Shown here piece after piece: positions 1 to 27,986 of a stretch of 44,496 nucleotides of DNA. Under the pieces are notes generated by a model. That model was given only the letters and a program-made list of their open reading frames with translations. It was not told where the DNA came from and did no database searches. The translations under genes and the position numbers were made by a program. Each line of letters begins with the position of its first letter. Position 1 is the first letter of the stretch. This stretch comes from a virus, in the IMG/VR virus record IMGVR_UViG_3300009124_000034, positions 1-44,496 of that record. One strand, written 5' to 3'.

Positions 1-77
1 AACAAGCTGCCCTTACAGGAAAGTAACGGCGAGATCCAGCTGTTTATGGATGGAGTTATTGCGGACCAAACATCTTG
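1..77. repeat. 77-bp terminal overlap identical to 44420..44496 (circular assembly closure)
   Basis: Direct comparison shows the first 77 nt of the window equal the last 77 nt. A reading frame continues across the join without a stop. Confidence 0.95.
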
Positions 78-11351: not shown

Positions 11352-11975
11352 TTACTCAAACGCAGCCTCCGCAATTGCTGGAAATTGTTGTTTGAAGATC
11401 TCACGGCAGGCAATTGCAATTCGACGATGCTCTAGCTGCGTGTCCTCACTGGAGCGTAAAGAAATGTAATGGTACCAACTTCTCAAGGTGCCCTGCATAT
11501 AAAGCGTCGTTCCAGTGCATAACGGCAAGATGCGCCTTGCTGTTTCCTTAGCCACCCCGTCCTGGAGCATCCGGTCATACAGCGAAAAGGCTTGCCCAAT
11601 CACATAGGAAGCCTGCCGCTGATAACCATCCTGGCGCGTTGGATGAATATCCGCAAAGCTGTTCTGCCTGTTTTTGGTGTCTTGCCGCCTAAACCAAGGA
11701 GTCTCAGCCCGCGCACTTTTGGCATAACGAGTTGAAAATTCCTGGAACGTAAAGCTGCGATGCCTCAAGATTTGAGCGCTGATATCCCGCTCAGTTTCAA
11801 TTTTGACGCACATGCAAGCCATCTCCATAGGAGACCAATGCTTGTGCTTAATCAGGTACTTAATGAGCTTCGGGCCAGTTTCCCAGTTATCTTCGTTTGC
11901 TGGGTTACTGACCCTAGCCATTTTTACGATTAGACGTTCGGCATTGGGAGTAGCCCAGACAAGCGATACGGTCAT
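11352..11975 (-). CDS. thyX: FAD-dependent thymidylate synthase ThyX
   Basis: The ThyX signature RHRSFTFQEFSTRY (RHRxxSxxxxSxR) is present, and the 207-aa size is typical. Confidence 0.9.
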   Translation of the reverse strand: MTVSLVWATPNAERLIVKMARVSNPANEDNWETGPKLIKYLIKHKHWSPMEMACMCVKIETERDISAQILRHRSFTFQEFSTRYAKSARAETPWFRRQDTKNRQNSFADIHPTRQDGYQRQASYVIGQAFSLYDRMLQDGVAKETARRILPLCTGTTLYMQGTLRSWYHYISLRSSEDTQLEHRRIAIACREIFKQQFPAIAEAAFE

Positions 11976-12322
11976 TCAGGAACATCTTGATAACGTGCTC
12001 GTCGTAGGATACGGCGGATTGTCACTGGATGGCACCCATATTTTTTTGCGAGCTGGTCCGCTGACCAGCCCTCATATTTTCTAAGCTTCCTTATGTCAGC
12101 AATATTTTCCTGTGTAAAAAACGAGCTAGGACTTTTCGTACCAGCGGGTCGTTTTATATTCCAAAGAATGCCGTCATCATCAAGACGTTCCACCTGTTGG
12201 GTGGTACGAAACGTATGACCGCAAGATGGGCATTTCCTATAGCGCCTAACCCTTTTACCGGTTGGGTGACACAGGGTTGAAGTGACTACGGTGTTTTTGT
12301 GGTTGCATTCAGGGCAGTGCAT
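11972..12322 (-). CDS. Transcription regulator: NrdR-type N-terminal zinc ribbon fused to a C-terminal HTH, no ATP-cone
   Basis: MHCPECNHKNTVVTS...RVRRYRKCPSCGHTFRTTQQVE parallels the NrdR pattern MHCPxC...T.V..SR...VRRRR.C..C..RFTT.E. The C-terminus ADQLAKKYGCHPVTIRRIL is HTH-like. Confidence 0.6.
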   Translation of the reverse strand: MHCPECNHKNTVVTSTLCHPTGKRVRRYRKCPSCGHTFRTTQQVERLDDDGILWNIKRPAGTKSPSSFFTQENIADIRKLRKYEGWSADQLAKKYGCHPVTIRRILRRARYQDVPE

Positions 12323-13193
12323 CAGTTCCCATTCCGTGTTGACGTGAGTAGCGAAGACGTAAGCGTTTCAAAGTGTCGTAATAGATCGTCCTGACCCGTT
12401 CTCTAGACAACCCCAACTCCCGCCCCATAGCCTGGAACGATGTAGGTTCACCGGTTTCCAATCCAAGCGCACCACTGACGATGTATTTCTGGCGGTCGCT
12501 GAGGCAGATCAAAAGATCATCCATTTTTTCCGCCATTTCAAGAGCGCAGATGTTGGTAAATACATCCTCATCAGATCTAACGCTGTCGATTAGCATCACC
12601 CCGTCCTCTATATTTTTGACGTTGACGTCAAGGCTCAAGGCATCACTAGACCTATCTATGTAATCCTGGAGCTTTTCGGGACTGAGTTTTACTAGATCAG
12701 CGCACTCTTCTAGCGTTGGTTTCCTGCCATGGGACGCCTCAAACTTAGGCTTCCAGTTTTGGATTTTGCTGAGCAGTTCACTGGCATGAGCAGGCATCCG
12801 AATAATCCGGTCCTGCGTGCTGATGTAACGAGTAATGCTCTGCCTTACCCACCAATAGACATAGGTGGAGAGGGCGTAGCCCCGCTCAGGATCAAACTTT
12901 TTGATGCCATGGGCAAGACCCATGTTGCCCTCTTGCACAAGATCGTAGATCTCAATGCGCATACACTTGTGGGTGTATTTTTTGGCAATCGAAACCACAA
13001 GCCTAAGATTGCAATTAATTAACTTGTGGTATGCACGTTGACCCCGCTTAATCGCCCGAGCATCTGGTGCGTCCGCTGAAATCCAAGCTTGCACTTGACG
13101 AGCAAGGATGATCTCCTGATCTTTAGTGAGGAGAGGATATTGGCCTATATCCCGTAGGTAGGCTGCGAAACCTTCTTTAGTTTTCAACTTCAA
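12309..13193 (-). CDS. RNA polymerase sigma-70 family factor
   Basis: YLRDIGQYPLLT (region 1.2), NLRLVVSIAKKY and DLVQEGNMGL..FDPERGYALSTYVYWWVRQ (region 2), and LGLSRERVRTIYYDTLKRLR (region 4). Confidence 0.9.
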   Translation of the reverse strand: MKLKTKEGFAAYLRDIGQYPLLTKDQEIILARQVQAWISADAPDARAIKRGQRAYHKLINCNLRLVVSIAKKYTHKCMRIEIYDLVQEGNMGLAHGIKKFDPERGYALSTYVYWWVRQSITRYISTQDRIIRMPAHASELLSKIQNWKPKFEASHGRKPTLEECADLVKLSPEKLQDYIDRSSDALSLDVNVKNIEDGVMLIDSVRSDEDVFTNICALEMAEKMDDLLICLSDRQKYIVSGALGLETGEPTSFQAMGRELGLSRERVRTIYYDTLKRLRLRYSRQHGMGTDALP

Positions 13194-14035: not shown

Positions 14036-15964
14036 TCAGTGAATCTCCGACCAGCGTTTACCGACTGAAGGCTCAGCTAGTGGCGGAATATCCCCAAGCC
14101 ACTTTGCTTCCGAGTCTTCCATTATTTGTTTTAGCCTTGCCGCCCACTCTTGGGCCTTTTCTTCCCTAACAAGCAACAAGATTTCATCGTGAATGCACGC
14201 TGCAATCCTGGCCTCAGTTTCCCCAACCTTGACTAACTCCTTCCAAAGCTTGCCCAACGCACACTTGAGGATGGCCGCACCAGCACCTTGGATTGGCGTA
14301 TTACACCGAACCGTTAGGCGATTCATCTCCCCAGGCAACCACCGCCGCATCCCAGACAGCGGTATCCGCATAAAAGCATCTTTTTGATTTTGCGTTTGCT
14401 CTGCGGCATACCCCTTTTCCTTTTGCCACTTAGCAATCCCCTGGTACGTCTTGAGCCACTGGTCGCGAATTTCTTTAGCGTCCTCAAGTGTCATGGTGAT
14501 GCCACTACTACCTGCGTAGTTACGAAGACCCTTCGCACCAGAGCCATAGAGCAGCCCAAAGTTTGCTGACTTGGCTATCTGCCTAGAGCAGCCGATTGCT
14601 TCTGCTGTAACCGTGTGAAGATCCTCGCCATCTTTAAAGGCTTGGATCATGCGTTCATCTTTAGCCACTGCCGCAGCGAGTCGTAATTCCATCTGACCAA
14701 AATCAGCATCCACAAGAAGCCAACCATCAGGAGCCTCAACACAACTGCGGAATTCTTTGTCACGCGGGATCTGCTGGTTGTTGGGTTTGATGCAGGACAT
14801 CCGCCCACTTTCTGCCCCGAGCTGCAAATAACTGGCACGTACAAAACCGTCAGAGTCCATTTTTTCAAGGATAGAATCCACCATTTGACGGCGTTTCTCA
14901 GCCTTTTTCCACGCAAGGTAAAGCTGAATAACGTGATGATCCGCCGCGTATTCCTGGAGCGCTGCACGACTTGCACTGGGTTTTCCTGTTTTGTTATCAA
15001 TGGGCTCCTTGCCTAAGAGCGCCGTGAATTTTTCCAGAAGCTGTTTTGGTGAGTTGAGGTTAAACCCTTTGTACTTTTTTGTACCCAGTCGTTTGGAGCC
15101 CTCCTCCTTAGCCCGTAGGTTAAAAATAGTTGGTTGAGTTTCGAGATCTGCGATCTCCTGCTCCCATTTATCGCGTATAGAAGGGTCGTGGCCCATCTCC
15201 GTGAGTTTCGCTTTGAGATAACCCAATCGCGGGGAGCTTTCTCTGGGCAACTTGTGTTTAGCTGGCAGAGCCTCATCAAGCTCAAACAAAAACTCCTTAG
15301 AAAGCGCAGCGATTTCATGTTCATAGTCCTCCCGTAGAGCATCAAGACTGGAGCGATTCCAAGGCAAACCGGTGCGCCACATCAAAGCCATGGCCTGCAA
15401 AGCGTTACACTCCAGCCCATAGGCACTCAGCAGCCCATTTGACGCAACTTTTTTGCGCAATACTTCATCAACTTCTAGCAGGATCTGCACATCCTTTGCC
15501 GCGTATTCAAGCTGCTCATCACTGAGTTCTGGAGCGCCCCAGTCAGACTTTTGCTGTTCTTTGGATAAAGAAATGCCAAGCTCTCGCTTTACAACATCTG
15601 CCAGACCATGCTTTAAACCAGGGCGGCCGTTGTGTAACAGCTTGCTGGCAAGCATTGTGCAATTTACCTTCCCGTTTAAAGTGAAACCGTTTTCCTGTAA
15701 CCAGCCAAGATCAAAGACAGCATTGTGAGCGACCCAGCTACGATTTTTAGACTCTAAAAAGTCATCAATTAAATCCCAGCTAGCGTCATCAACCTCAAAC
15801 AAGTCAATGATGACAATGGTTTTATTGACTGCGGCGCCCAATTGAAGGAGGCGTAGTTTACCGCTTTCAGGCTGCAGCTGGAGCGTTTCGCAGTCAAATG
15901 CAACGTGCTTGGCAGCAGAAATTTTGCTGAGATGCTCAGCGCCGTAAAAAACTTTGTAGTTCAT
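14036..15964 (-). CDS. polA: Family A DNA polymerase (Pol I-like) with 3'-5' exonuclease domain
   Basis: Exo motifs VAFDCETLQL, NAVFDLGWL and YAAKDV. Pol motif A is LVDADFGQMELRLAA, motif B is KSANFGLLYGSG, and motif C is CIHDEILL. Confidence 0.95.
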   Translation of the reverse strand: MNYKVFYGAEHLSKISAAKHVAFDCETLQLQPESGKLRLLQLGAAVNKTIVIIDLFEVDDASWDLIDDFLESKNRSWVAHNAVFDLGWLQENGFTLNGKVNCTMLASKLLHNGRPGLKHGLADVVKRELGISLSKEQQKSDWGAPELSDEQLEYAAKDVQILLEVDEVLRKKVASNGLLSAYGLECNALQAMALMWRTGLPWNRSSLDALREDYEHEIAALSKEFLFELDEALPAKHKLPRESSPRLGYLKAKLTEMGHDPSIRDKWEQEIADLETQPTIFNLRAKEEGSKRLGTKKYKGFNLNSPKQLLEKFTALLGKEPIDNKTGKPSASRAALQEYAADHHVIQLYLAWKKAEKRRQMVDSILEKMDSDGFVRASYLQLGAESGRMSCIKPNNQQIPRDKEFRSCVEAPDGWLLVDADFGQMELRLAAAVAKDERMIQAFKDGEDLHTVTAEAIGCSRQIAKSANFGLLYGSGAKGLRNYAGSSGITMTLEDAKEIRDQWLKTYQGIAKWQKEKGYAAEQTQNQKDAFMRIPLSGMRRWLPGEMNRLTVRCNTPIQGAGAAILKCALGKLWKELVKVGETEARIAACIHDEILLLVREEKAQEWAARLKQIMEDSEAKWLGDIPPLAEPSVGKRWSEIH

Positions 15965-17739: not shown

Positions 17740-18101
17740 GACCGCAGGCCATGCACTTGAGAACTTATGCCGCGCTCCTTCCATTCCCTAATAAGGGTGC
17801 CAACCTTTTCAAAGCAGGCGTTACGGACGTCGTAAGGAATTGAGCGCATAAACTTTTCAAGCCTGAACATCAAAAGTTCATCACGGTCATCCACAACATC
17901 TGAGAACTTGTCGAAATGCCGGACGCCGTTACCAATGGCGCTAACCAAAAAAACCTGGAACGCCGGGCATTCAAGCAAATCTTTAAGTGTGTACTGATCT
18001 GCAAGCTCTAGAGACTCCTCGGGGAGGATAATGTCGTAAGGCATAAAGTTGTTTTGTAGTAAAGGGGTCATAAAGACCCCCGAGATGCTAGCACAAAGCA
18101 A
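17736..18101 (-). CDS. Hypothetical protein
   Basis: 121-aa ORF in the leftward block. Confidence 0.55.
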   Translation of the reverse strand: MLCASISGVFMTPLLQNNFMPYDIILPEESLELADQYTLKDLLECPAFQVFLVSAIGNGVRHFDKFSDVVDDRDELLMFRLEKFMRSIPYDVRNACFEKVGTLIREWKERGISSQVHGLRS

Positions 18102-18647
18102 TCAGTGTTTTTTGAGCCAGAGCTGCATGGCCTCTTCAATGGCCTGGGCTTTGTTGACCTGGAGCGCAATACAACGCCCCAGGAACTTGCACTTGAGGTT
18201 TTTGTCCACGGCAGAGATCACCATCTTCTCCCGTACAGACGTTGAGGAAGGGATAACCACTGGAAGTGTGTTGCTGACCTCCTGCAACGGCTTAGAGACG
18301 CTGAGATGGCTGGAGTCCTCCCGGATGGATTTAAACCGCGCAATACCGTCTTCAAAGCGCTTGTCAGCGGGCTTGACAAGCTCCAGGTTGACGGCGGTAC
18401 CAACAGGGCAAATCTCTTCGTTGAGCCATGAGGGCGCGAACTCCATGCTGACCATGCCCCTGTGAATGCCCTCTGGGACGTCACAGGATGGGTCCAGGGT
18501 GACAAACAGCAGTTTGGATGTGTTGGTGACGCGCCAGCTGGCCGCAATGCCCCAAGCGTCGTAATGGTTGTACGCCCCATCAACTGCAGGCCAGTTGGTG
18601 TTGCGTTGTTCTGCCATCGAAATAACCATCAGCAAGAAAGAAAGCAA
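18102..18647 (-). CDS. Hypothetical protein (alternative start at 18617)
   Basis: 181-aa ORF abutting the next gene. The first 10 codons are hydrophobic and may be untranslated (MAEQRN at 18617). Confidence 0.55.
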   Translation of the reverse strand: MLSFLLMVISMAEQRNTNWPAVDGAYNHYDAWGIAASWRVTNTSKLLFVTLDPSCDVPEGIHRGMVSMEFAPSWLNEEICPVGTAVNLELVKPADKRFEDGIARFKSIREDSSHLSVSKPLQEVSNTLPVVIPSSTSVREKMVISAVDKNLKCKFLGRCIALQVNKAQAIEEAMQLWLKKH

Positions 18648-18666
18648 GAGGTGCCCGGAGGCACCT
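18634..18666 (-). terminator. Possible intrinsic terminator/attenuator after the primase-helicase gene
   Basis: AGGTGCC-tccg-GGCACCT (minus-strand reading), a 7-bp stem followed by the T-rich tract CTTGCTTTCTTTCTT. It lies between the stop at 18680 and the next start. Confidence 0.35.
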
Positions 18667-18679
18667 CAAGCCTATTCCG

Positions 18680-21124
18680 TTAATCCCAAATTTCATGCGC
18701 CTTGTCCAAAGCATCTTGCAATTGCTCTGAACTGCGATCTTCCTCGCGCGCGCGGGGGCTATGGGACAACGTCCCACTTGGGTCAGATCCCGCGTCAGCA
18801 CTGGATTCCTTAGTGGGACACTCCTGTTTTTCAGAGAAGGTGTCCCACTTAGACGCTCCAGCCTCCAATTCCTTAGTGGGACACTTTTCGTCCTTAGTGG
18901 GACTGTCCCACTTAGAAAGTGAGTTATTGCAAGGGGTTTGGGGTAAGTGGGACACCTCTTTGAAGCCCCCGCGCACGAGTAAAGCTCTGTATTCCAACTC
19001 TGGAGACCCCTTCTTTAGTTGCTGGAGCGTCCTGACCTCCAACACACCCCGGTTGACCAAACGCTGGAGCGCTTTACGGATTGCGCTGACGTTGCCACCC
19101 ACAAGCGGATCAGCGTTGAGTTGCTGGCGCGACAACCACTCGTTTTTGGTTTGGAGGCGGTTCATGATCCGCTCTGCAACAGTTCCAGCCCGTGTTTGAA
19201 GCTCCTCAAGCTTGCGTGCCTCGACCAGGGAAACGGTGAGATCCTCGTTTTGGGTCTGGATAAGCGATTCACCACTGCGGTTCAAGCGTGACTTGCCAAC
19301 GGTGATGACCCGCTGGTCAACCTGAAGACCAGAGTCTTTTTTGGGGTGGCTGATATTCCAGACCTCAGAGACCGCAGCAGAGATGGCTGTAGAGCCTCGT
19401 GCGCCCCCTGTGGCCTTTGCAGCGTGGTGGAGGACCACGATGGTGCAAGCAGGCCAGAGAATGCCGTTCTTGGCGCTCAGCCAGTACAGAGGCTGCGCAA
19501 ACTCAGCCTTGTTCTCATCCCCCGCCTTAGACCCAGAGCAGCTGGAGAGGCTGTCGATGCAGATCATGGACGGCTTCACCCGGTTCATGGTCTTCATGAA
19601 CTGCGCCTGCCTGTAGATGTTGAAGTCAGGCTCGAACCAGAAGTTCTGCCCGTTTTTGATTTCATGCAGGTCGTACTCCTCTTGGAAATCCAGTGAGGAC
19701 ATGTCTGCGTTGAAGTAGATCACTGGACCTGCTTCAACCGGCACCAGCTGATCCTTGAGCTGGAACGGAATGCCATCCACCACATGCTTCATCAGAGCCA
19801 GGGCAGTCGCGCTCTTACCGCACCCTGGATCGCCGTACATCAGCAGGAGATACCCATAGGGCAGCAAACCAGGAATCAGGAAATCCCGAAGACCCCGCTC
19901 CCGGATATCCATGGTTCTGCCCGCTTCCCGTGTCTGCTGCGTGATGTACTCCATAAGCAGCTTTTCAACACCGGATTGGTCTTTGTAACGAGCTTCCATT
20001 GCGATGGAGTGCAGCTCGTAATTCATGCGAGAGGTGTCGTCGAGCTCATAAGCAGCCATACCGCGACGAATGATTTCGTCGTAAGGAAGCCCCACCTCCC
20101 TGGTGCGTTGAACTGCAGCCTCAGCAGCCTCAAGAATTTTCAGGCTGTCCGGCTGGAACCTGGTGCGTTTGGGGTCAATGCGGTCTGCCTGATAGATCAG
20201 GGAGCCCAGTCCAATACGGCCACCAGCTTTGAAGGAGTTCCAAGGCTGCTCACAGGGGTTTTGATTGCCCTGCCATTCATGAGCAAAGTCGAGGTCTTTG
20301 GCAGACCAGGCAGACCAGAGTGTGAGGCCCAAGTAATTGGGCAGTACGGAGTGGATCGCCATGCCAATGCGGATCCAGTGATCCCGCTGCCCAGCACCGC
20401 GAGGTTGGATGACGTCAAGGCAATCAGTGATGATCACCGCGATTTCATCCTCAGTGCGATCACTGAGATCAAGGGCAGTGCGGTTTTTGATGAAGGTGTT
20501 GGGAGCCTTAGCGGCCTTCATCTCCGCTAGGAGCCACGCAGGAGCCTCTGGAACGGCGTCCGGGTCCCCGCTGAAGTCATATTCCCCTGCGGGCCATTTG
20601 CCGTCCTGTGAGCCCGGATAGGCCCCGTAGATGACGCCCTGAGCACCGAACAGGACTTCGTAGCCGAGGTTGTGGTCTTCTGAATGACCAAAGCCACTAA
20701 CCTCATTCCAAAGTTCCTGAGGAACCCGGAAGATATATTTAGCGGCGTTCCTTTTAGTGGAAGTAATAACTGGAGCGCCGTCCAGATCCGAACCCCACTT
20801 ACGCTTGAGCGCAGCAAGATTTTTGTCAACGTCAAGGATGACAAGACCATTGCCTCTGATGCCAGTGAATACACCAACAGCAGAGAGATCAGAGCGCTTT
20901 TCAAGCTGGTGCGCTACGTCATCCCGATTAAGGGATTTGTCAAAGGCAAGTTCAAGGGGATTTTTACCGATGGCTTCTTTGCCGGAGATCATCCGAGCGC
21001 CTTTGCGGTAAATGGGAGCAAGTACCCAACTCAGGGGCAGTTGCTTGACGAGATCTACTAGTCTCATACTAAAGTGAAATAGAGGTTTACAAACGCCCTT
21101 CAGGTTCTGCGGCCTGAGGGGCAT
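18680..21124 (-). CDS. Bifunctional primase-polymerase / helicase (prim-pol + PriCT-like + RecA-type ATPase)
   Basis: VGVFTGIRGNGLVILDVDKN (prim-pol DxD), HWIRIGMAIHS (primase C-terminal type), Walker A LLMYGDPGCGKSAT and Walker B-like MICIDSLSS. The start may be 21066 (MRLVDL) because 21124 sits inside a strong hairpin. Confidence 0.85.
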   Translation of the reverse strand: MPLRPQNLKGVCKPLFHFSMRLVDLVKQLPLSWVLAPIYRKGARMISGKEAIGKNPLELAFDKSLNRDDVAHQLEKRSDLSAVGVFTGIRGNGLVILDVDKNLAALKRKWGSDLDGAPVITSTKRNAAKYIFRVPQELWNEVSGFGHSEDHNLGYEVLFGAQGVIYGAYPGSQDGKWPAGEYDFSGDPDAVPEAPAWLLAEMKAAKAPNTFIKNRTALDLSDRTEDEIAVIITDCLDVIQPRGAGQRDHWIRIGMAIHSVLPNYLGLTLWSAWSAKDLDFAHEWQGNQNPCEQPWNSFKAGGRIGLGSLIYQADRIDPKRTRFQPDSLKILEAAEAAVQRTREVGLPYDEIIRRGMAAYELDDTSRMNYELHSIAMEARYKDQSGVEKLLMEYITQQTREAGRTMDIRERGLRDFLIPGLLPYGYLLLMYGDPGCGKSATALALMKHVVDGIPFQLKDQLVPVEAGPVIYFNADMSSLDFQEEYDLHEIKNGQNFWFEPDFNIYRQAQFMKTMNRVKPSMICIDSLSSCSGSKAGDENKAEFAQPLYWLSAKNGILWPACTIVVLHHAAKATGGARGSTAISAAVSEVWNISHPKKDSGLQVDQRVITVGKSRLNRSGESLIQTQNEDLTVSLVEARKLEELQTRAGTVAERIMNRLQTKNEWLSRQQLNADPLVGGNVSAIRKALQRLVNRGVLEVRTLQQLKKGSPELEYRALLVRGGFKEVSHLPQTPCNNSLSKWDSPTKDEKCPTKELEAGASKWDTFSEKQECPTKESSADAGSDPSGTLSHSPRAREEDRSSEQLQDALDKAHEIWD
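18762..18953. repeat. Iteron cluster: 7 copies of AGTGGGAC/GTCCCACT in both orientations (candidate replication origin) inside the primase-helicase 3' end
   Basis: GTCCCACT at 18771, 18842 and 18905. AGTGGGAC at 18812, 18875, 18896 and 18946. Extended unit CCTTAGTGGGACAC. Includes the palindromes TGGGAC-aac-GTCCCA (18762) and TGGGAC-t-GTCCCA (18898). Confidence 0.7.
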
Positions 21125-21129
21125 TTTTT
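21095..21129. other. Strong hairpin plus T-run overlapping the annotated primase-helicase start codon
   Basis: GCCCTTCAGG-ttctgcgg-CCTGAGGGGC, 10 bp with one G-U, followed on the given strand by ATTTTTTATT. The ATG at 21122-21124 (minus strand) lies in the stem. Confidence 0.5.
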
Positions 21130-21201
21130 ATTGTATGGAGGCTTGTCAAGCCCATGGAACGGTACTAGGGTGGTCGAGCCAACCGAGCAAGAACAGCGCT
21201 C

Positions 21202-21792
21202 ATGGGCTTCATTTCAACCAAAGCATCAAAGATCGCAGCCGGAGGCGGCGGCGGTAATGGCGGATATATGACCGCTTCCAAGCTGGGGGACGGCGAGTCC
21301 TATCGGATTGCCATCCTCAGCGAAGAACCCCTGGAGTATTTCACTGTCTGGGGCGAGACCGACGATGGCCAGAAGAAGCCATTCAGGTTTGCCGACGAAC
21401 CTACTGCTGATGACATCACCAAAGAACTAGGTGACTACAAACAGCGCATGAATTATGAAGGCACCGAACTTGAAAAACCCAAGTTTGCCCTTGCATTTTT
21501 CTGCTTTGACTACGCAGATTCCAAGGTCAAGGTATTTGAAATGGGTCAAAAGACTCTTATCAAAGAACTTGACAACATCTGCAACCAAGAGGATTACTCA
21601 AACCTCCAAGAATGGGACATGGTTGTATCACGTACAGGCGTAAAAATGAACACGGAATACAAAATTCTCCCCGCACCCCGCAAAAAGGGTATGCAGGAGA
21701 CCGTGGATGCAGCCTGGAGCGATGCTGAGGGCAAGGGCTACGACCTCACCCAGCTGATGGTGGGCGGAAATCCATTTGGCGAGACGTTGTAA
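21202..21792 (+). CDS. Putative ssDNA-binding / annealing protein (function from context only)
   Basis: 196-aa ORF with a Gly-rich N-terminus. It is the first gene of a rightward operon divergent from the replication block, upstream of a PD-(D/E)XK nuclease. No diagnostic motif was recognised. Confidence 0.35.
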   Translation: MGFISTKASKIAAGGGGGNGGYMTASKLGDGESYRIAILSEEPLEYFTVWGETDDGQKKPFRFADEPTADDITKELGDYKQRMNYEGTELEKPKFALAFFCFDYADSKVKVFEMGQKTLIKELDNICNQEDYSNLQEWDMVVSRTGVKMNTEYKILPAPRKKGMQETVDAAWSDAEGKGYDLTQLMVGGNPFGETL

Positions 21793-21886
21793 AGACCCAG
21801 ATTTCTGGTATTCTTTGCGAGTAAACGACTCTGATCGGCTGTTTACATCACGCCCAGCTGTTGTTCGCTGCTCCTGTGACTTCAGA

Positions 21887-21916
21887 ACCCCGAGACCCAC
21901 TTCTCGGGGTTTTGTT
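21887..21916 (+). terminator. Rho-independent terminator
   Basis: ACCCCGAGA-cccact-TCTCGGGGT followed by TTTGTTG, 95 nt after the stop at 21792. Confidence 0.8.
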
Positions 21917-21985
21917 GTATCCGCTGGAACGTTGCCATTCACATGCACTGATTTTGTGCTAATCTAAAAAACTGAAGGGGTACAA

Positions 21986-22018
21986 AGAGGCAACCGGCCG
22001 AGCGGTGGCCTCTTTTTT
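21986..22018 (+). terminator. Second rho-independent terminator in tandem
   Basis: AGAGGCAACCG-gccgag-CGGTGGCCTCT with one mismatch, followed by TTTTTTATT. Confidence 0.8.
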
Positions 22019-22051
22019 ATTGGCTATAGTAAATCTGGGAAAGAGTATTTC

Positions 22052-22228
22052 ATGACCTACGGAGCAGAAGACGTCCAAACCCAAGACCAGCGAATGGCCC
22101 GCTTAGAGCACCTATACCGCAAGGACCTCCGCTTCCGTAAGGATCATCCCTGGCACGGTCACTTCACCGGCCTATTCAATCTGTACCGCAACCATCCCGC
22201 AATGACCGAAAACATCAAAAGTGTTTAG
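22052..22228 (+). CDS. Small hypothetical protein (hand-translated)
   Basis: 58-aa ORF MTYGAEDVQTQDQRMARLEHLYRKDLRF... starting 34 nt after the terminator. The next ORF starts 2 nt after its stop. Confidence 0.4.
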   Translation: MTYGAEDVQTQDQRMARLEHLYRKDLRFRKDHPWHGHFTGLFNLYRNHPAMTENIKSV

Positions 22229-22230
22229 TC

Positions 22231-22392
22231 ATGCTGGAACGTACCCCAGAACCCGAAATACATAACGAAGAAGACGGCATGGTTCGTATTAGTATCGGAC
22301 CATACAAAGGCTGGGTAAGCTCACACCATCTCATAGACCCCAAAGTAAATCAGCTTATCCATATATGGAATCAGAATCACAACAAAAGCTAA
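22231..22392 (+). CDS. Small hypothetical protein (hand-translated)
   Basis: 53-aa ORF MLERTPEPEIHNEEDGMVRISIGPYKGWV... that overlaps the start of the nuclease gene. Confidence 0.35.
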   Translation: MLERTPEPEIHNEEDGMVRISIGPYKGWVSSHHLIDPKVNQLIHIWNQNHNKS

Positions 22393-23180
22393 GTACCTTA
22401 CGCACAAGTCGGCTGGTACGAGATGATTCTGGCGATTTCCGCGTATATCGGGACAACGGGGGCAATACTTTTCACTCTGTTACGCACATCCTCAAAGAAA
22501 CAGCCCCACCCCAACAAAAAGAGGCCCTGGAACGGTGGCTGGCTCGACCGGGTGCTATCCAAGACCGGGATTTAGCCGCCAACCGAGGCACCAAAGCCCA
22601 CGACGCCTGTGAATACACCTTAAAAACCGCCGCCCAGCTGGCACGCAAAACCGCCAACAAGCGCAACAGCTGGAAAACCTCCCCAGACGGGCTGGAACGC
22701 TGCCCCGCCCCCATCACCCAATGGGCCCTAGAGAAAGCCGCCCTAGGAGCTCCCAAAGTCCCCTGGAACGCTGCTGGTTACGCCCGCAACCTAAAGGGCT
22801 GGATCCTGGAAAACGTAACCGCCATTCATGCGATTGAATTTTCCATTCATTACAGCCTCAACCAAAACCATGGATTCGCTGGAACGTGTGATGCCCTTGT
22901 AGACGTGAACAAAAAATTGTGCATCGTTGATTGGAAGACCTCTCAACGTGAACGATCAGAGGACATGCTTACGAATTACATCGACCAGCTTGGTGCGTAC
23001 AGCATTGGACTCAAGAGTCTCACCAACATCAAACCGCAAGGCGGCCTAGTAGTGGTGGCACGTCGCACCGGAGCCCCCCAAGTCCGAGAACTAAGCGAAC
23101 TCGAACTTAGGGGTGCCGAATTTAGGTTCCTGGAACGTGCTGAAGCATATTTTTCTGGTTTAAAAGAAGCCGCAAGTTGA
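22365..23180 (+). CDS. PD-(D/E)XK family nuclease (RecB/Cas4-like or lambda-Exo-like exonuclease)
   Basis: GFAGTCDALVD...KLCIVDWKTSQ fits the D...(D/E)xK core. The upstream GTKAHD / SVTHIL motifs are typical of this family. Confidence 0.6.
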   Translation: MESESQQKLSTLRTSRLVRDDSGDFRVYRDNGGNTFHSVTHILKETAPPQQKEALERWLARPGAIQDRDLAANRGTKAHDACEYTLKTAAQLARKTANKRNSWKTSPDGLERCPAPITQWALEKAALGAPKVPWNAAGYARNLKGWILENVTAIHAIEFSIHYSLNQNHGFAGTCDALVDVNKKLCIVDWKTSQRERSEDMLTNYIDQLGAYSIGLKSLTNIKPQGGLVVVARRTGAPQVRELSELELRGAEFRFLERAEAYFSGLKEAAS

Positions 23181-23181
23181 T

Positions 23182-23502
23182 CTACCTGGAACGCTTACGT
23201 GGATAGATCCCCTTGACCTGCCTGATGTTTTTAAGGCAATGGGGGTGGTCTGCATCCCTTTCCCCACGAAGGAAGAACCCACCCCCAACCAAAACGCCAT
23301 TCAGAGGCAGCCTCCTGCTCCCCCAAGCATTCAAAACCACCCAAGGGCCATAGTGCTGCCTGGAGCGCTCTAGGGCCTCCTCCACGCTGTTTGCGAGGGT
23401 CTGGCAGTAGATGATCCGCTCAGCCCCACGTTTAACGGTATCCGTCAACGTGAGACTCACGAGTCTCGTCTCTGTGAAAGTTGGTAGCTGGAGCGTTTTC
23501 AT
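23182..23502 (-). CDS. Hypothetical protein
   Basis: 106-aa ORF convergent with the nuclease gene (stops 1 nt apart). Confidence 0.5.
   Translation of the reverse strand: MKTLQLPTFTETRLVSLTLTDTVKRGAERIIYCQTLANSVEEALERSRQHYGPWVVLNAWGSRRLPLNGVLVGGGFFLRGERDADHPHCLKNIRQVKGIYPRKRSR
23451..23468. promoter_or_regulatory. Inverted pair GAGACTC-ac-GAGTCTC
   Basis: Perfect 7-bp inverted repeat using the same word as the direct pairs at 13777 and 23922. It lies at the 5' end of ORF 23182..23502. Confidence 0.4.
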
Positions 23503-23505
23503 GGT

Positions 23506-23706
23506 TCAAACCTCCGAAGCGCAAACTTCACAAAGATCTTGTTTGATTGAAAGTCGGTAAGGAGCCCAGTCCTTACCGCCATTGATGGATTCTTGCCCAG
23601 TCACACTCCTGGAACGTTGACCATACAAATCGCCTTTAGCGATCGTTGCTTCGCATTGCTTGCAAGTGCGTTCTTTCCTGGAACGTTTGAGTTTCATTAG
23701 AGCCAT
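23506..23706 (-). CDS. Small zinc-ribbon protein
   Basis: 66-aa ORF with CKQC...CEVC cysteine pairs. The start codon lies within the first unit of the 19-bp tandem repeat (alternative start at 23697). Confidence 0.5.
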   Translation of the reverse strand: MALMKLKRSRKERTCKQCEATIAKGDLYGQRSRSVTGQESINGGKDWAPYRLSIKQDLCEVCASEV

Positions 23707-23776
23707 TCATAAGGGAAAAAGCCATTCATAGCGAAAATCGCCATTCATAGCGAAAAAGCCATTCATAGGGTGATTG
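23702..23776. repeat. Tandem repeat, 4 units of 18-19 bp (GCCATTCATAGCGAAAAA)
   Basis: GCCATTCATA at 23702, 23721, 23740 and 23758, each followed by an (A/G)G(C/G)GAAAA-type A-tract. It is intergenic, upstream of the leftward gene 23506..23706. Confidence 0.9.
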
Positions 23777-23921
23777 GCTGGAGCGTCGCCTTGGTGTGGT
23801 TCCGCTTGATGACCAATGTAGCACCACAGGGTCAGGCGTCAAGGTTGGCTGGTACGTGATCGCATACGGGTAAGAATGAGAATCGTTCTCAACAGCAAGG
23901 CGAGTTAACCCGTAGTCGTTA

Positions 23922-23939
23922 TGAGTCTCATGAGTCTCA
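23922..23939. promoter_or_regulatory. Paired TGAGTCTCA sites (operator-like)
   Basis: TGAGTCTCA-TGAGTCTCA, a perfect direct 9-mer pair, intergenic, 10 nt downstream (leftward) of the terminator at 23952-23972. Confidence 0.5.
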
Positions 23940-23951
23940 TCTACGGGCAAT

Positions 23952-23972
23952 AAAAAAGGCCCGAAGGCCCTG
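23952..23972 (-). terminator. Rho-independent terminator (minus strand) with UUCG tetraloop
   Basis: The minus strand reads AGGGCC-TTCG-GGCCTT followed by TTTTTTATT. It starts 4 nt after the stop of gene 23976..24338. Confidence 0.75.
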
Positions 23973-23975
23973 TAG

Positions 23976-24338
23976 TTACTTTGTACTGGTCCGCTTGCGA
24001 GCTTTACCGGCGTCAATCCTGACCTTACGAGTGCTGGGACGTTTACCGACAGATTCCGGTTTCCATTGATTCCAAAGTTCAGCAGGACAGGGACAACCGC
24101 CCTCCATGCTTTCCTGGCGTAGAGACCAAGACGGGATCAGCTCATGTGCTAACTGCCTCCCGCCTTCCTTTCCGTGTCTGCTGTGGAGCGTTAACAAGGT
24201 CTCCCACTCTGCTGGGGTGATCGGGTAACGATCGATTGCCCAGCGCAGATCTTTGTAGGCGATTTTTTCTAGGCGCTTGATTTCGCGCTCTTCTTGGGTG
24301 GAGCGCTTCTTTATTTCTGTGGTGCTGAAAACTGACAA
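23976..24338 (-). CDS. Hypothetical basic protein
   Basis: 120-aa ORF with a TTG start per the track. It is followed by its own terminator and is divergent from ORF 24496. Confidence 0.5.
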   Translation of the reverse strand: MSVFSTTEIKKRSTQEEREIKRLEKIAYKDLRWAIDRYPITPAEWETLLTLHSRHGKEGGRQLAHELIPSWSLRQESMEGGCPCPAELWNQWKPESVGKRPSTRKVRIDAGKARKRTSTK

Positions 24339-24495
24339 GGGTGTCTAGGTGGGGCTACCCAAGCACAATACAGGAAAAACGAAAAATGGCGATTAATTTG
24401 TGGAAAACTGCCTATAGCTAGGGTCTGTTGACTGAGGCGCTTGCGTTTCCCCAGGATCTGTGTTCTACTGTAGTGGTTGACTCCACCTAAAGGTC

Positions 24496-25131
24496 ATGAC
24501 TGCTTCCGCTGATCCTAAGTTCTGGGACTGTCCCACGCTGGACACTGACGAGCACATCCGTCAAAGTTTGGGGGAACCCTTAACGCTGCCAGATTCTGTG
24601 GATCCTGGCTCGTGGTGCGCTGATGCCGAACCAGCCCTGCTTCGCTGGTTTGCGAGGCAGACTCGTCAACAATACGTACAGCGCGTACGGGACAACACCT
24701 ACAATTCAGAAAACGACTTTTCTGCTAATTTCGTTTTTTCCGTGTTTGCTCCAGAGGACGCCCCTGACTGGTTTTTTTCTCCAGACGTCTTTGTTGTCGT
24801 TGAAAAGCACCTAGGTGGTGACGTACGCGGAAATTACGGACCTTTAGCTGTCTACCGCGCCGATTGTTTGGCCGAGACAGGCTTCCTTGATTGGGTCTGC
24901 GGCTGGCACGCTTCCCCGCTTCCGGCTGACGCTGATGCAGAGTGGCCAGCTTTGCAGGCTTGGAACGATCGCTTTGCTATTGGGTACAGCAGTTGGCCGA
25001 CTGGTGAGGTCCGGGACGCTTTGGTCAGTAAAGAACCTGCATGGTCGGAATCTTGCGGTGCCTACCTGGCACGCTTGGAAGACGTTCCGTTTCCGGTTGT
25101 TTTAGAACCGGTTGCGTCATTTTACTGTTGA
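24496..25131 (+). CDS. Hypothetical protein
   Basis: 211-aa ORF, first gene of the long rightward transcription unit. It contains the TGGGACTGTCCCA palindrome at codons 10-13. Confidence 0.6.
   Translation: MTASADPKFWDCPTLDTDEHIRQSLGEPLTLPDSVDPGSWCADAEPALLRWFARQTRQQYVQRVRDNTYNSENDFSANFVFSVFAPEDAPDWFFSPDVFVVVEKHLGGDVRGNYGPLAVYRADCLAETGFLDWVCGWHASPLPADADAEWPALQAWNDRFAIGYSSWPTGEVRDALVSKEPAWSESCGAYLARLEDVPFPVVLEPVASFYC
24523..24535. promoter_or_regulatory. 13-bp palindrome TGGGAC-t-GTCCCA identical to the one in the iteron cluster
   Basis: Exact 14-mer TGGGACTGTCCCAC shared with 18898-18911. It is preceded by CTAAG as in the iteron unit. Confidence 0.55.
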
Positions 25132-25187
25132 GATGCTACAGTAGAAACCGAGCAGACAAGCTCACCAACTATCACCACATCAAACCT

Positions 25188-25421
25188 ATGAACAACCTAC
25201 TAATCGGAACGGGCATCATCGGCGGAGCCTATGGCGGCGTCCTTTGTTTGGCTGGGGCGTTAGGTCTCTGGACCCCGTGCCCGGCTTCCTACAACAGCTG
25301 CAGCGAACTGCAGAGCAAAGCAACGTCAACGCTCCTGATCGGTGGTGCGTTGCTTGGTACCGGTGCCGGATTGTTCGCCATCGGTGCAGAGCGTGACCGC
25401 AAAAATCTGACCCGGATCTGA
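25188..25421 (+). CDS. Small two-helix membrane protein
   Basis: 77-aa ORF from the internal Met of track ORF 25041..25421: MNNLLIGTGIIGGAYGGVLCLAGALGLW...TLLIGGALLGTGAGLFAIGAERDRK. It has two Gly-rich hydrophobic helices and a charged tail. Confidence 0.5.
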   Translation: MNNLLIGTGIIGGAYGGVLCLAGALGLWTPCPASYNSCSELQSKATSTLLIGGALLGTGAGLFAIGAERDRKNLTRI

Positions 25422-25424
25422 ACC

Positions 25425-25601
25425 ATGAAATCAATCCAATTTCTAGGCCAGGACGTCACAGCAGAGCAGACCAAGGACTCTCCTACAGGGTGGTGCGCTA
25501 CCGGCTGGGAAAAGGGTCTACCGGTTTGCCGCAAGCCGATAACCGGCGAAGCTGTCGCTGAATTAATGCGGCGTTTCGATCACGTGGTGCGGACTGTCTA
25601 A
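25425..25601 (+). CDS. Small hypothetical protein (hand-translated)
   Basis: 58-aa ORF MKSIQFLGQDVTAEQTKDSPTGWCATGWEKGLPVCRKP... starting 3 nt after the previous stop. Confidence 0.4.
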   Translation: MKSIQFLGQDVTAEQTKDSPTGWCATGWEKGLPVCRKPITGEAVAELMRRFDHVVRTV

Positions 25602-25741
25602 GTGCTAGGGGAGAGACGCCTAGGGAAGCCTGAGAGGTTAGTTAGCTGTCTGTATGGATTGCGGCTTGCCTCTCTGCTGACAGTAAGGGTTAAAGCGGTT
25701 CAGCTGGGACGCTGCGCCGCAAGGGATCTCAGCTGCGGCTC

Positions 25742-25759
25742 GTATCTACCTGTAGATAC
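25742..25759. promoter_or_regulatory. Perfect 8-bp-arm palindrome GTATCTAC-ct-GTAGATAC in a 280-nt non-coding stretch
   Basis: Read directly and followed by AAAAAATT. There is no convincing ORF between 25602 and 25881. Confidence 0.5.
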
Positions 25760-25881
25760 AAAAAATTACTGTCACAAAACGACATGTTGCACTTCTTCAC
25801 ATAGCGCTCGCGGTTCCGCTTTTGTTGTGATAGGATACGGGAGAACCGGCAGCCCACCTCTAGCCCGGTCCCACCAACAAA

Positions 25882-26055
25882 ATGTCACTAACTCAAGTTT
25901 TCTGGTTACTCGAATCTTGCGGGTATCGTGTAAACAAAATGAAATCGGACGGACGCTATGTCGTCGCCCGTGGATGTTATTCCCCCTGCTACTGTCCGCC
26001 TGGCGGAAGATTTAACAAAACTGAATTAATTGCCTTTGCCGAAAACTTAGCCTAA
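25882..26055 (+). CDS. Small Cys-rich hypothetical protein (hand-translated)
   Basis: 57-aa ORF MSLTQVFWLLESCGYRVNKMKSDGRYVVARGCYSPCYCPPGGRF..., followed 9 nt later by a 10-bp-stem hairpin. Confidence 0.4.
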   Translation: MSLTQVFWLLESCGYRVNKMKSDGRYVVARGCYSPCYCPPGGRFNKTELIAFAENLA

Positions 26056-26064
26056 AAAGTATTA

Positions 26065-26091
26065 CTTACCCCCGCATTTACCGGGGGTAAG
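26065..26091 (+). other. Strong stem-loop (10-bp stem, 7-nt loop) upstream of the terminase genes
   Basis: CTTACCCCCG-catttac-CGGGGGTAAG. There is no T-run, so it is not a canonical terminator. It lies in the 212-bp leader before terS. Confidence 0.6.
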
Positions 26092-26267
26092 GTTCAAGAT
26101 TGCACGCGCTGCGCATGAAGGTAGGGAACCTGCACAAACAACACTAAAATTCTCTACTGTGCTAGGGGGCAGGGGTTCAATCCCTACACTGTGCTACACC
26201 GCCCCACCAAAAAATACGCAACCCATGTAAGATCGCTGGAACGTTGTTACATTGAACTCAAGATTCT

Positions 26268-26735
26268 GTGAATCTCTTGGAAGACAACATCGTCCCTGTG
26301 GGACACGACAACACCAACGAACCAGAAGAAACTGATCTAGTTGCAATCCCTGGATCGCAGGCGATTAACAGGAAGAACTATCGCAAGATTGAGCGTGTCA
26401 AGCGGCTCTATGCACGCCAACTTGAGGGCCTTCCCGCCAAGCAACTGGTCCTAGACCACGCCAAAAAAGAGCAAGTCAGCGAAGAAACCGCCTGGCGCGA
26501 CTGGCGTGAAGTCGCAAAACTCAACGACCAAGACTTCGCCCTGGAACGTGAGACCATGGCCGCCCGCATCTTCGCGATGCGCCAAAAAGTCCTCAATGCG
26601 GCAATGCGTCGAGGCCAAATGCAAACCGCCGCCAGTGTTTTGGATTCCCTGGCACGTCAAGTCGGTTGTGACGAAGCGCAATTAAACCAAGTATTGCCCG
26701 AAATCAACGTCAAAATCCAACCACCCGAGCAATAA
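26268..26735 (+). CDS. terS: Terminase small subunit (by position)
   Basis: 155-aa ORF with a GTG start whose stop directly abuts the terL start (TAAATG). It is helical and charged. No diagnostic motif. Confidence 0.5.
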   Translation: MNLLEDNIVPVGHDNTNEPEETDLVAIPGSQAINRKNYRKIERVKRLYARQLEGLPAKQLVLDHAKKEQVSEETAWRDWREVAKLNDQDFALERETMAARIFAMRQKVLNAAMRRGQMQTAASVLDSLARQVGCDEAQLNQVLPEINVKIQPPEQ

Positions 26736-27986
26736 ATGCCCGCAACCTTGGATTTAGGTCTCCGTCCCGCCCAATACGAAGTATTTAGCTCCCAAAAACG
26801 ATTCCGCGTTTTAGTTGCAGGCCGCCGCTTTGGCAAGTCCTACCTGGCCTGCATCGAACTCTTCATCAAAGCCCTGGCACGTCCAGGCGAAACCTACTTT
26901 TACTGCGCCCCGACATACCGGATGGCCAAGGACATCGCCTGGAAAACGTTAAAAAAGGTAATCCCACCAGAATTTATCACCTCCAAAAACGAAACCGACC
27001 TGAAGCTAGAACTTGTCAACGGTTCCACCATCGAATTAAAGGGCACCGAGAACGCCATGGCCCTGCGAGGCCGTTCTTTAGCAGGTGTGGTTTTAGACGA
27101 AGCCGCCTTCATGGACTCCGAAGTCTGGTTCGAGGTCATCCGCCCCGCCCTCGCCGACAAACAAGGTTGGGCCTTATTCATCAGCACCCCGGATGGAACG
27201 GCCAGCTGGTTTTACGACATGTGGTGCTACGTCCCAGAGGACAAAACCAACGACTGGTCCCGCTGGTGCTACACAACAATTGAAGGAGGCAATGTCCCCA
27301 GTGAAGAAGTCGAAGCAGCCCGCGCTCAACTTGACACGCGCACGTTCCGCCAGGAATTTGAAGCATCATTCGAGAACCTCAGCGGCCTGGTCGCCATCAG
27401 TTTCGCGGACGCCAACATCAGCAAAGACGTCCGCGACCTCCCCGTCCTCCCCCTCTTACTAGGCGTCGACTTCAACGTGGACCCCATGACCGGCATCTGC
27501 GCGGTTAAGAAAGGTGACACTTTATGGATTTTCGACGAAATCATCATGACGGGTGGTGCGACCACCTGGGATTTCTGCGAAGAAGTCCAAAACCGCTACG
27601 GCGTAGACCGCCGCATCATCAGCTGCCCGGACCCTACCGGCGGTGCCCGCAAAACCCAAGGCGTTGGCACGACCGACCACAGCATCCTCCGCAAATCCGG
27701 CTTCACCGTTTCCACCCCCAAAGCCCCGTGGAAGATCCGGGACAAAATCACCTGCGTCAACACCGCCCTCCTCGACGCCACTGGAACGCGCCGCATGTTC
27801 ATCCACCCCCGCTGCAAGGAACTAATCAAATCCCTCCGCACCCTGACCTACTCCCCTGGAACGGGTCTCCCCAACAAAAATCTCGGAGTTGACCACTGCT
27901 TCGACGCCTTGGGCTACCTATGCCTGCAAGTATTTAATCTGGCCAAACCCGAAACCATTGGCACAACAAACTACCGCGTATGGTGA
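26736..27986 (+). CDS. terL: Terminase large subunit
   Basis: Walker A VLVAGRRFGKS and Walker B LAGVVLDEAAF, with a C-terminal nuclease-type region. The 416-aa size is typical. Confidence 0.9.
   Translation: MPATLDLGLRPAQYEVFSSQKRFRVLVAGRRFGKSYLACIELFIKALARPGETYFYCAPTYRMAKDIAWKTLKKVIPPEFITSKNETDLKLELVNGSTIELKGTENAMALRGRSLAGVVLDEAAFMDSEVWFEVIRPALADKQGWALFISTPDGTASWFYDMWCYVPEDKTNDWSRWCYTTIEGGNVPSEEVEAARAQLDTRTFRQEFEASFENLSGLVAISFADANISKDVRDLPVLPLLLGVDFNVDPMTGICAVKKGDTLWIFDEIIMTGGATTWDFCEEVQNRYGVDRRIISCPDPTGGARKTQGVGTTDHSILRKSGFTVSTPKAPWKIRDKITCVNTALLDATGTRRMFIHPRCKELIKSLRTLTYSPGTGLPNKNLGVDHCFDALGYLCLQVFNLAKPETIGTTNYRVW

Follow-up and report, generated by a model that had tools for sequence, protein, structure and literature searches.

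A candidate replication origin and its putative initiator at the end of a primase-helicase gene in uncultured phages

What is a cluster of short inverted repeats doing in the 3′ end of a phage primase-helicase gene? The question is raised by IMG/VR virus record IMGVR_UViG_3300009124_000034, analysed here over its positions 1 to 44,496 (the window, 44,496 bases). A 77-bp direct repeat at the ends of the window (1-77 and 44420-44496) indicates a complete phage genome, circularly assembled and 44,419 bp long. The gene (18680..21124, minus strand) encodes a protein of 814 aa with PrimPol, PriCT_2 and RepA-like helicase (AAA_25) domains, a predicted C-terminal winged helix and a tail that is itself encoded by the repeats. 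An original prediction, made from the letters of the window, had proposed the array as a candidate origin of replication bound by the initiator. Comparison with relatives now supports an origin-plus-initiator pair in a widespread uncultured phage family along several independent lines: the conserved place of the array, the co-variation of its word with the recognition helix of the protein, and a genome-wide boundary of motif polarity that falls on it. The array is probably a cluster of binding sites for the primase-helicase's own predicted winged helix. The element that contains it (~18,747-18,977) is likely to be the origin of replication, with the adjacent primase-helicase as its initiator.

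The relatives are ~150 loci from IMG/VR and JGI metagenomes that encode relatives of the primase-helicase, mostly at 39-93% identity. The non-redundant set comprises ~115 loci.

Architecture and conservation of the array

The 8-mer AGTGGGAC/GTCCCACT, one word in its two orientations, occurs seven times in the array, at 18771(-), 18812(+), 18842(-), 18875(+), 18896(+), 18905(-) and 18946(+), and only once more in the window, at 31397(-). These eight copies compare with 1.14 +/- 1.05 expected for the whole 44,496 bases, and none of 100 shuffles reaches eight. With a degenerate further site, aTGGGACA at 18762-18768, the array has eight sites within 192 bp. There are two palindromes, TGGGAC-AAC-GTCCCA at 18762-18776 and TGGGAC-T-GTCCCA at 18898-18910, and the extended unit CCTTAGTGGGACAC is exact at two positions, 18808-18821 and 18871-18884. 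The original prediction had listed the seven copies, all with the positions and orientations found here, as well as both palindromes, the extended unit and a protein tail reading ...SKWDSPTKDEKCPTKELEAGASKWDTFSEKQECPTKE..., which translation of the open reading frame (ORF) 18680..21124(-), open for 814 aa, confirmed. It had not described the readings of the word in other frames (VSH, LSH, SGT), the GC boxes that bracket the array or its dyad symmetry, nor had it recorded that no second cluster of the AGTGGGAC word exists anywhere else in the complete genome.

Read along the gene from the winged-helix side, the outermost site is iteron 1 (18946..18953, plus strand; coding strand GTGTCCCACTTA), translated V-S-H-L. 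Iterons 2 and 3 form the tight palindrome AGTGGGAC-T-GTCCCACT (18896..18912), translated K-W-D-S-P-T. The inner sites are iteron 4 (18875..18882, plus strand, translated C-P-T) and its mirror, iteron 5 (18842..18849, minus strand, translated K-W-D); iteron 6 (18812..18819, plus strand, again C-P-T) mirrors iteron 2. Iterons 7 and 8 close the array as TGGGACA-AC-GTCCCACT (18762..18778; coding strand AGTGGGAC-GTT-GTCCCAT), translated S-G-T-L-S-H, where iteron 7 (18771-18778) mirrors iteron 1 and iteron 8 (18762-18768) is the degenerate site. The mirror pairs of the window are thus 18946/18771, 18896/18812 and 18875/18842, with a common centre at ~18862, and the two extra sites make the tight palindromes. 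Outside the sites lie two GC boxes, one on the gene's 5′ side (18964..18977; coding strand GTGCGCGGGGGCT, encoding ..VRGG..) and its inverted partner on the 3′ side (18747..18760; coding strand AGCCCCCGCGCGCG, translated S-P-R-A-R). A repeat search returned them as an inverted repeat of 14 nt, 93% complementary and 203 nt apart.

The same plan recurs in the family. The canonical element has eight TGGGACA-core sites in four nested mirror pairs, at -17, +61, +74 and -90 on one side and +121, -137, -150 and +194 on the other, counted from where the winged-helix coding region ends. Three or more mirror pairs are present in 44 of 45 non-redundant IMG/VR loci, the sites on the two sides being oppositely oriented, and the arrays of relatives hold 5-9 sites each. 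At each end a GC box lies ~10-12 nt outside the outermost site; the left (CCTCGCGCGnGGGGAGAG) and right (ATATCCCCCCGCGCGAGG) consensus sequences are inverted copies of each other. The left box encodes ..LARGE.. or ..VRGG... Where the ORF continues through the array, the right box encodes ..PRARE..; elsewhere it is non-coding but still kept as DNA (CCCCCCGCGCGAGG).

The place of the array is fixed relative to the winged helix, not to the end of the ORF. It adjoins the primase-helicase gene at the same place in the ~115 relatives and in essentially all of them starts ~20 nt or less from the end of the winged-helix coding region, while the stop codon falls anywhere from 9 to 145 codons past the winged helix, depending on the clade. 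In a large group at ~45% identity the ORF ends ~36 nt past the winged helix and the array is intergenic; in most of the ~115 relatives it is likewise non-coding, just past the earlier stop codon. The iterons lie inside the ORF and are translated in the window, L001, L002 and the other read-through clades. In most relatives a locus has no copies of the word outside the cluster.

Close relatives, at 92% and 82-83% identity, keep the eight cores while the flanks drift. Between the window and L002 (82% identity), 1 of 48 core positions differs, compared with 35 of 187 positions elsewhere in the element (Fisher p = 0.003). Substitutions against L002 at codon positions one, two and three number 15/7/13 in the element (of ~62 each) and 25/11/62 just upstream (of 157 each). 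The word is read as CPT, SPT, VSH or LSH in one orientation and as KWD or SGT in the other within the window alone; across the read-through clades, the TGGGACA core is used in frames f0, f1 and f2 and in both orientations (VP/CP/VSH and GT/WD/GQ). In L002 (3836-4106, aligned with 18680-18953 of the window), all four GTCCCACTAAGG copies are GTCCCACTCAGG, a concerted change next to the core (K to Q in the peptide), and the copies in the opposite orientation keep their flanks.

The use of the core in all frames, its near invariance against L002 and the non-coding arrays of most relatives together indicate, at the level of sequence comparison, that selection is on the DNA word and not on the peptide. 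The original prediction had held that selection acts on the DNA element, and had named homologues that conserve the peptide repeats with unrelated codons as the observation that would speak against it; the relatives show the opposite pattern, keeping the DNA word and not the peptide. The reverse explanation, that the KWD/CPTK repeats are selected as protein and the DNA repetition is a by-product, draws on the several clades in which the ORF stays open across the array and ends in a conserved helix. It is contradicted by the translation of one DNA core in three frames and both orientations, by the position of the array outside any ORF in most relatives, by the predicted disorder of the tail and by substitutions in the tail that are not concentrated at third codon positions, and we give it practically no chance. 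Since the ORF merely happens to cross the array in the window's clade, the tail peptides KWD, CPTK, VSH and SGT would be passive translations of the sites.

The predicted winged helix and its word

Pfam domains found in the primase-helicase are AAA_25 (1.8e-15), PriCT_2 (6.7e-15) and Prim-Pol (1.1e-5). The nearest solved sequences to the helicase part are RSF1010 RepA (1G8Y, E 2e-4, over the Walker region) and RadA; no SaPI Rep, P4 or D5 chains were among the solved-structure sequence matches of the helicase module. An AlphaFold2 model was made for aa 620-814 from 34 aligned sequences. In it aa 649-714 (18983..19180, minus strand) form three helices and two strands in the order H-H-H-strand-strand, with a predicted local distance difference test score (pLDDT) of ~90, and a Foldseek search of the PDB with this domain returned only winged-helix DNA binders (ArsR, PadR, TFE, RTP and others). 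The third helix, VSAIRKALQRLVNR (aa 679-692; 19049-19090), is the predicted recognition helix; it includes R683, whose codon is 19076-19078, the coordinates having been checked by translation.

The residue at the R683 position co-varies, in the ~115 non-redundant loci, with the two bases 5′ of GGACA. Where it is R the word is TG-GGACA in 87 of 91 loci, and where it is K the word is GG-GGACA in 15 of 18 loci, which represent six different helix contexts and include one mixed clade. The rarer residues go with other pairs of bases: T and Q with GT (2 and 1 loci), V with CT (1 locus) and N with CA (2 loci). A neighbouring variant, Q687E, pairs with (A/C)C-GGACA, and the helix ALKKRLERL pairs with an unrelated word, GAGGGTGGCGC, at the same place. 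The switches among R/K, T/Q, V and N fall in otherwise similar backgrounds (a 60-74% clade). Such a pattern would be expected from contact between this helix and those bases. We regard the co-variation as good, if indirect, evidence that the sites are read by the predicted winged helix of the primase-helicase itself.

The word variants seen at this position are GAGGGTGGCGC (ALKKRLERL), CGGACAA in 9-13 copies (GIRKALERL), GTGGACAA (AITKTLQRL), CAGGACA (AINKTLQRL) and TAGGACA (AIRKSVQRL). The loci that hold them are L052 (5121-5445), L145, L079/L082, L080/L081 and L136.

Past the winged helix, the iteron-encoded part of the protein (aa ~718-795; 18740..18973, minus strand) is predicted to be disordered, with pLDDT <50 over residues 99-166 of the modelled fragment. 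It is followed by a conserved C-terminal helix (aa 799-813, ..SSEQLQDALDKAHEIWD; 18686..18730, minus strand) with pLDDT 82-86, the last helix of the model ending ..LQDALDKAHEIWD. The motif ER(T/S)xEELxxLxxxAxxxW(D/E) is kept in the clades whose ORF runs through the array (L006-L016, L058, L072-L152), and the helix may serve as a protein-protein contact. No equivalent was detectable in clades with an early stop. The idea that these clades encode the helix in a mini-ORF past the array is not supported: a hidden Markov model of the C-termini had no match better than E = 0.012 among the ORFs downstream, a tiny database.

Polarity of CTGGNRCG across the genome

A different motif marks the genome as a whole. 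CTGGNNCG occurs 160 times in the window, where 21 +/- 4.6 copies are expected, and 125 of these are on the plus strand and 35 on the minus strand; of the plus-strand copies, 88% have a purine as their sixth base. In the form CTGGNRCG it is found mainly as CTGGAACG, CTGGAGCG, CTGGTACG, CTGGTGCG and CTGGCACG, and it is densest at 19,022-26,874. No reading frame, sense or antisense, is without copies of CTGGNNCG, and the strand bias is thus independent of gene direction. The polarity is common to 114 related loci, with 724 copies opposite to the gene strand and 256 on it.

Inside the element the polarity is reversed. There, 64 of 71 loci carry TGGNRCG on the gene strand (124 copies vs 12), with three fixed positions, one in each spacer (left and right) and one at the dyad centre. 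In the window, the copy at the dyad centre (~18862) is CTGGAGCG at 18854..18861 on the minus strand, the minority orientation of the genome.

A boundary of strand asymmetry is the classical sequence footprint of a replication start. In a change-point search on the circular genome, the best arc has its start at the element, between 18,854 and 19,022, and its end at ~26.9 kb. CTGGNRCG is on the plus strand in 38 of 38 copies within this arc and in 72 of 97 elsewhere (log-likelihood ratio 18.7, reached in none of 200 permutations). For relatives we asked for the single best change point in each of four 22-kb loci. It falls on the element in L070 (72% identity, p = 0.001), L155 (73%, p = 0.001) and L153 (46%, p = 0.066); the fourth locus is considered below. 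Cumulative GC skew follows the gene blocks of the window, and an origin signal is absent from it.

Origin function, rival explanations and known systems

If the element is an origin, the steps from binding through melting and helicase loading to origin firing, all of which we infer, could run as follows. The C-terminal winged helix (aa 649-714, recognition helix VSAIRKALQRLVNR) would bind the heptamer TGGGACA, and the eight dyad-symmetric sites around ~18,862, with the inverted GC boxes outside them, would gather many protomers on ~230 bp. This gathering would nucleate the RepA-like hexameric helicase on the DNA, so that a separate loader would not be needed, as with SaPI Rep, P4 alpha and the papova/papilloma initiators. 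The fused PrimPol domain would make the first primers, which the phage DNA polymerase A (14036..15964) would extend. The iteron-encoded tail would serve as a disordered linker from the winged helix to the short conserved C-terminal helix.

Several observations weigh against an origin read by this protein. The window element has no AT-rich unwinding region, its 30-nt windows being 43-67% GC, and the mean profile of 107 loci shows no AT dip: the element is slightly above the locus average in GC, with peaks at about +/-110 nt from the dyad centre. A search for DnaA boxes found them at chance level and none near the element. Foldseek returned generic winged helices (best E 2.8e-3) and no specific origin-binding homologue such as P4 alpha or SaPI Rep. 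One K-type clade has a mixed word (GG 16, TG 14), and the co-variation counts overstate the number of independent events because the loci are phylogenetically related. In L154 (53% identity) the change point is off the element by 1.3-1.8 kb and falls within the gene (p = 0.008). The window also has a second repeat array, at 23,701-23,768. Finally, from the best arc to the rest of the genome the polarity relaxes, and does not flip as a bidirectional origin would predict.

Because the polarity relaxes and does not flip, unidirectional or rolling-circle replication toward increasing coordinates fits it better than symmetric bidirectional replication. CTGGNRCG may be a priming or loading signal, or a Chi-like site, as it resembles GCTGGTGG and GSTGGAGG. 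A fuller proposal, doubtful at present, is that the element starts essentially unidirectional replication and that CTGGNRCG is the priming/loading signal of the PrimPol-helicase. On that proposal the three fixed gene-strand copies inside the origin would template the first leading-strand primers, and the ~110-125 opposite-strand copies distributed around the circle, at their purest (38/38) in the 8 kb past the origin, would be marks of the lagging-strand template.

Other functions for the element were weighed on the same evidence. The array could be bound by the winged helix and yet serve transcriptional control, as an autoregulatory operator or a 3′-end roadblock that would adjust how much transcription continues into the replication genes further on (18647 down to 11352). 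It does stand at a transcription-unit junction, directly before a terminator-like hairpin and T-tract (18648..18667, minus strand) that lies directly 3′ of the primase-helicase stop codon and is kept in L001 and L002; moreover, winged helices of this fold class are mostly transcription factors, and co-variation shows recognition, not the purpose of binding. We nonetheless consider it unlikely, as eight dyad-symmetric sites over 230 bp with GC boxes far exceed the needs of an operator, the domain that would bind them is part of one polypeptide with a hexameric helicase and a primase, and the known analogues with a gene-then-sites layout are origins. A purely transcriptional role would also leave the genome-wide polarity boundary unexplained. 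The nested inverted repeats and GC boxes might instead act through their shape, as a hairpin or cruciform or as an mRNA fold, in the manner of the stem-loop origin of pRN1 orf904. As single-stranded DNA or RNA the 256-nt element folds at -59.2 and -115.1 kcal/mol, far better than shuffles (z = -6.6 and -6.7), with the GC boxes as the basal stem, though these z-scores do not discriminate, because good folding is bound to result wherever one word is repeated in inverted copies. The pRN1 origin and phages of the BIP-1 type do have a stem-loop near such a gene (PMC4234260), and in L016 the two GC boxes have an unusual insertion in common. Against a structural role, the flanks of mirror partners are not specifically alike (4.85 of 10 positions, compared with 4.59 for non-mirror opposite pairs and 5.24 for same-orientation pairs), the degenerate inner sites of the L023 group are without compensation in their partner sites, no Rfam family matches the element region at E <= 1, and the residue-to-base co-variation argues for sequence read-out; such a role seems quite unlikely.

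Repeated inverted words are also typical of pac, parS and recombinase arm sites, so packaging, partition, recombination or the binding of a different phage or host protein has to be considered, the more so as the phage encodes an HNH/helix-turn-helix (HTH) protein (11972..12322) and a sigma factor (12309..13193). However, neither the PHROGs scan of 20 proteins nor the other scans yielded an integrase, ParA/ParB or protelomerase, and the terminase genes (26736..27986) are 8 kb from the array. The array, moreover, is always attached to the winged-helix end of the primase-helicase gene and its word tracks the recognition helix of that protein, which makes a transaction of this kind very improbable.

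The second array at 23,701-23,768 consists of four direct 19-bp repeats, GCCATTCATAG(C/G)G.., in the intergenic space just upstream of a small Zn-ribbon-like ORF (23506..23706, minus strand). Two copies of ATGAGTCTC and a terminator-like hairpin are nearby. Its 11-mer is present once or twice at the equivalent place in the distant relatives L008, L017, L052, L070 and L072. As an origin it was judged less likely than the element at the primase-helicase gene, its word not being conserved as an array in distant relatives, and it is probably a regulatory site.

Among known systems the element is, by analogy, closest in logic to the ori of the Rep/PriRep proteins of Staphylococcus aureus pathogenicity islands (SaPI), and it has parallels in P4 and lambda. 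SaPI Rep helicases are of a different class and have the opposite (3′-5′) polarity. The C-terminal winged helix of SaPI Rep/PriRep reads iterons of 5-6 nt, of which 6-12 lie directly downstream of rep; they are oppositely oriented on the two sides of the ori, two hexamers are thought to bind, and the self-loading helicase-initiator is sometimes fused to a primase (PriRep5) (PMC9371898, PMC7581432). The window resembles this in having at least six short repeats in opposite orientations, an array at or after the 3′ end of the gene and a predicted C-terminal winged helix. It differs in that the SaPI ori has a central AT-rich region and the window element none, in its AAA_25/RSF1010 RepA-like helicase module and PrimPol primase with PriCT_2, and in an array that is bracketed by GC boxes and, in the window's clade, translated.

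Lambda O has neither helicase nor primase and recruits host DnaB through P. The lambda ori lies inside gene O, where extra iterons add residues (13 extra aa in the O protein of Stx phages), and its iterons are followed by an essential AT-rich tract (PMC7466680). The window's clade shares with it origin iterons inside the coding sequence of the (here putative) initiator, with the DNA imprinted on the protein. Unlike lambda, the window protein carries its own helicase and primase, the AT-rich tract is absent, the arrays of most relatives are outside the ORF, and a sequence relationship was not found.

P4 needs a second, distant site, crr. The original prediction had drawn a parallel to P4 ori with its distant crr; the complete genome has no crr-like second cluster. 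It had also described P4 alpha as a prim-pol/helicase; P4 alpha does unite, in one polypeptide, a primase, a helicase and a winged helix at the C terminus for binding to origin repeats, but its primase is of the Toprim type (PMC4234260). The fusion of primase, helicase and (here predicted) winged helix is thus a shared feature, while the window has a Prim-Pol/PriCT_2 primase and an AAA_25 helicase. Closer in its primase is orf904 of pRN1, a PrimPol-helicase-winged-helix gene with an SF3 helicase, whose origin is a ~100-nt stem-loop without iterons 3′ of the gene; BIP-1-type phages have a similar stem-loop and a protein with PrimPol, PriCT_2, helicase and C-terminal winged helix (PMC4234260). 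ORF904 and BIP-1 share with the window the succession of PrimPol, helical domain, helicase and winged helix and an origin (a candidate one here) directly 3′ of the replication gene. Unlike pRN1, the window family has a repeated word that is apparently read out, and the pairing of mirror partners is not specifically conserved.

The oriV of RSF1010 has a GC-rich segment. RSF1010 has the three activities predicted for the window: a RepA-type hexameric helicase, an iteron binder and a specialised primase, which in RSF1010 uses defined signals on opposite strands (PMC4234260). In IncQ plasmids these are three separate proteins, with 20-bp direct iterons, an AT-rich stretch and the ssiA/ssiB hairpins, whereas the window has one fused protein and 7-nt sites in both orientations and is without the AT-rich stretch; no RepC-like gene was seen among the window proteins scanned. 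Having no AT-rich region, another helicase class than SaPI, P4 and pRN1, no crr and no 20-bp direct iterons, the element would function along the lines of these systems without belonging to any single one. A full-text literature search for the word together with 'iteron' returned no paper.

The phage is without close cultured relatives in the collections searched: megablast of 4 kb and 22 kb of the window gave no match among 50,697 phage records, and tblastn of the primase-helicase against phage records gave only four weak matches to the PrimPol domain. The portal is ~36% identical to those of cyanosiphoviruses. GTDB genomes gave a single match, a 44.8-kb contig binned in a gammaproteobacterial metagenome-assembled genome, and this contig is likely to be from a phage. 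In the protein database the primase-helicase has 1181 homologues, all from metagenomes and without names. On the strand of the primase-helicase gene, the replication module comprises the DNA polymerase A, a nucleotide kinase, the sigma factor, the HNH/HTH protein, which is a DNA-binding protein of the phage, and a thymidylate synthase. The sigma factor, of the sigma-70 family and encoded on the minus strand, is kept in L070, L154 and L155. An SSB-like gene and an exonuclease gene diverge from the 5′ end of the primase-helicase gene, and tail fibres, endolysin, terminase, portal, scaffold and major head protein are encoded elsewhere. A scan of 18000-21500 found no sigma-70-like promoters. The first ten codons of the primase-helicase gene overlap a GC-rich hairpin of 12 bp (GCCCTTCAGGTTCTGCGGCCTGAGGGGC) with a T-run behind it on the plus strand (21095-21122). 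In the mRNA the hairpin would mask the start region, and it may serve translational or transcriptional control.

Origins are unknown for almost all uncultured phages, and here comparative sequence alone narrows a candidate to ~230 bp and names the protein that would read it. The co-variation would amount to a residue-to-base specificity code for a family of which more than 1000 homologues are present in metagenomes, marine and other. If the element is an origin, then the translated origin and the intergenic origin are interchangeable states of one element in this phage family, and an iteron origin of a self-loading primase-helicase can be without an AT-rich unwinding region. If the polarity of CTGGNRCG does report fork direction, it would offer a route to the replication mode of such phages from sequence only. 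Should the unidirectional proposal hold together with the residue-to-base code, these phages would have a self-contained system in which origin specificity and the usage of primer sites could both be read from sequence.

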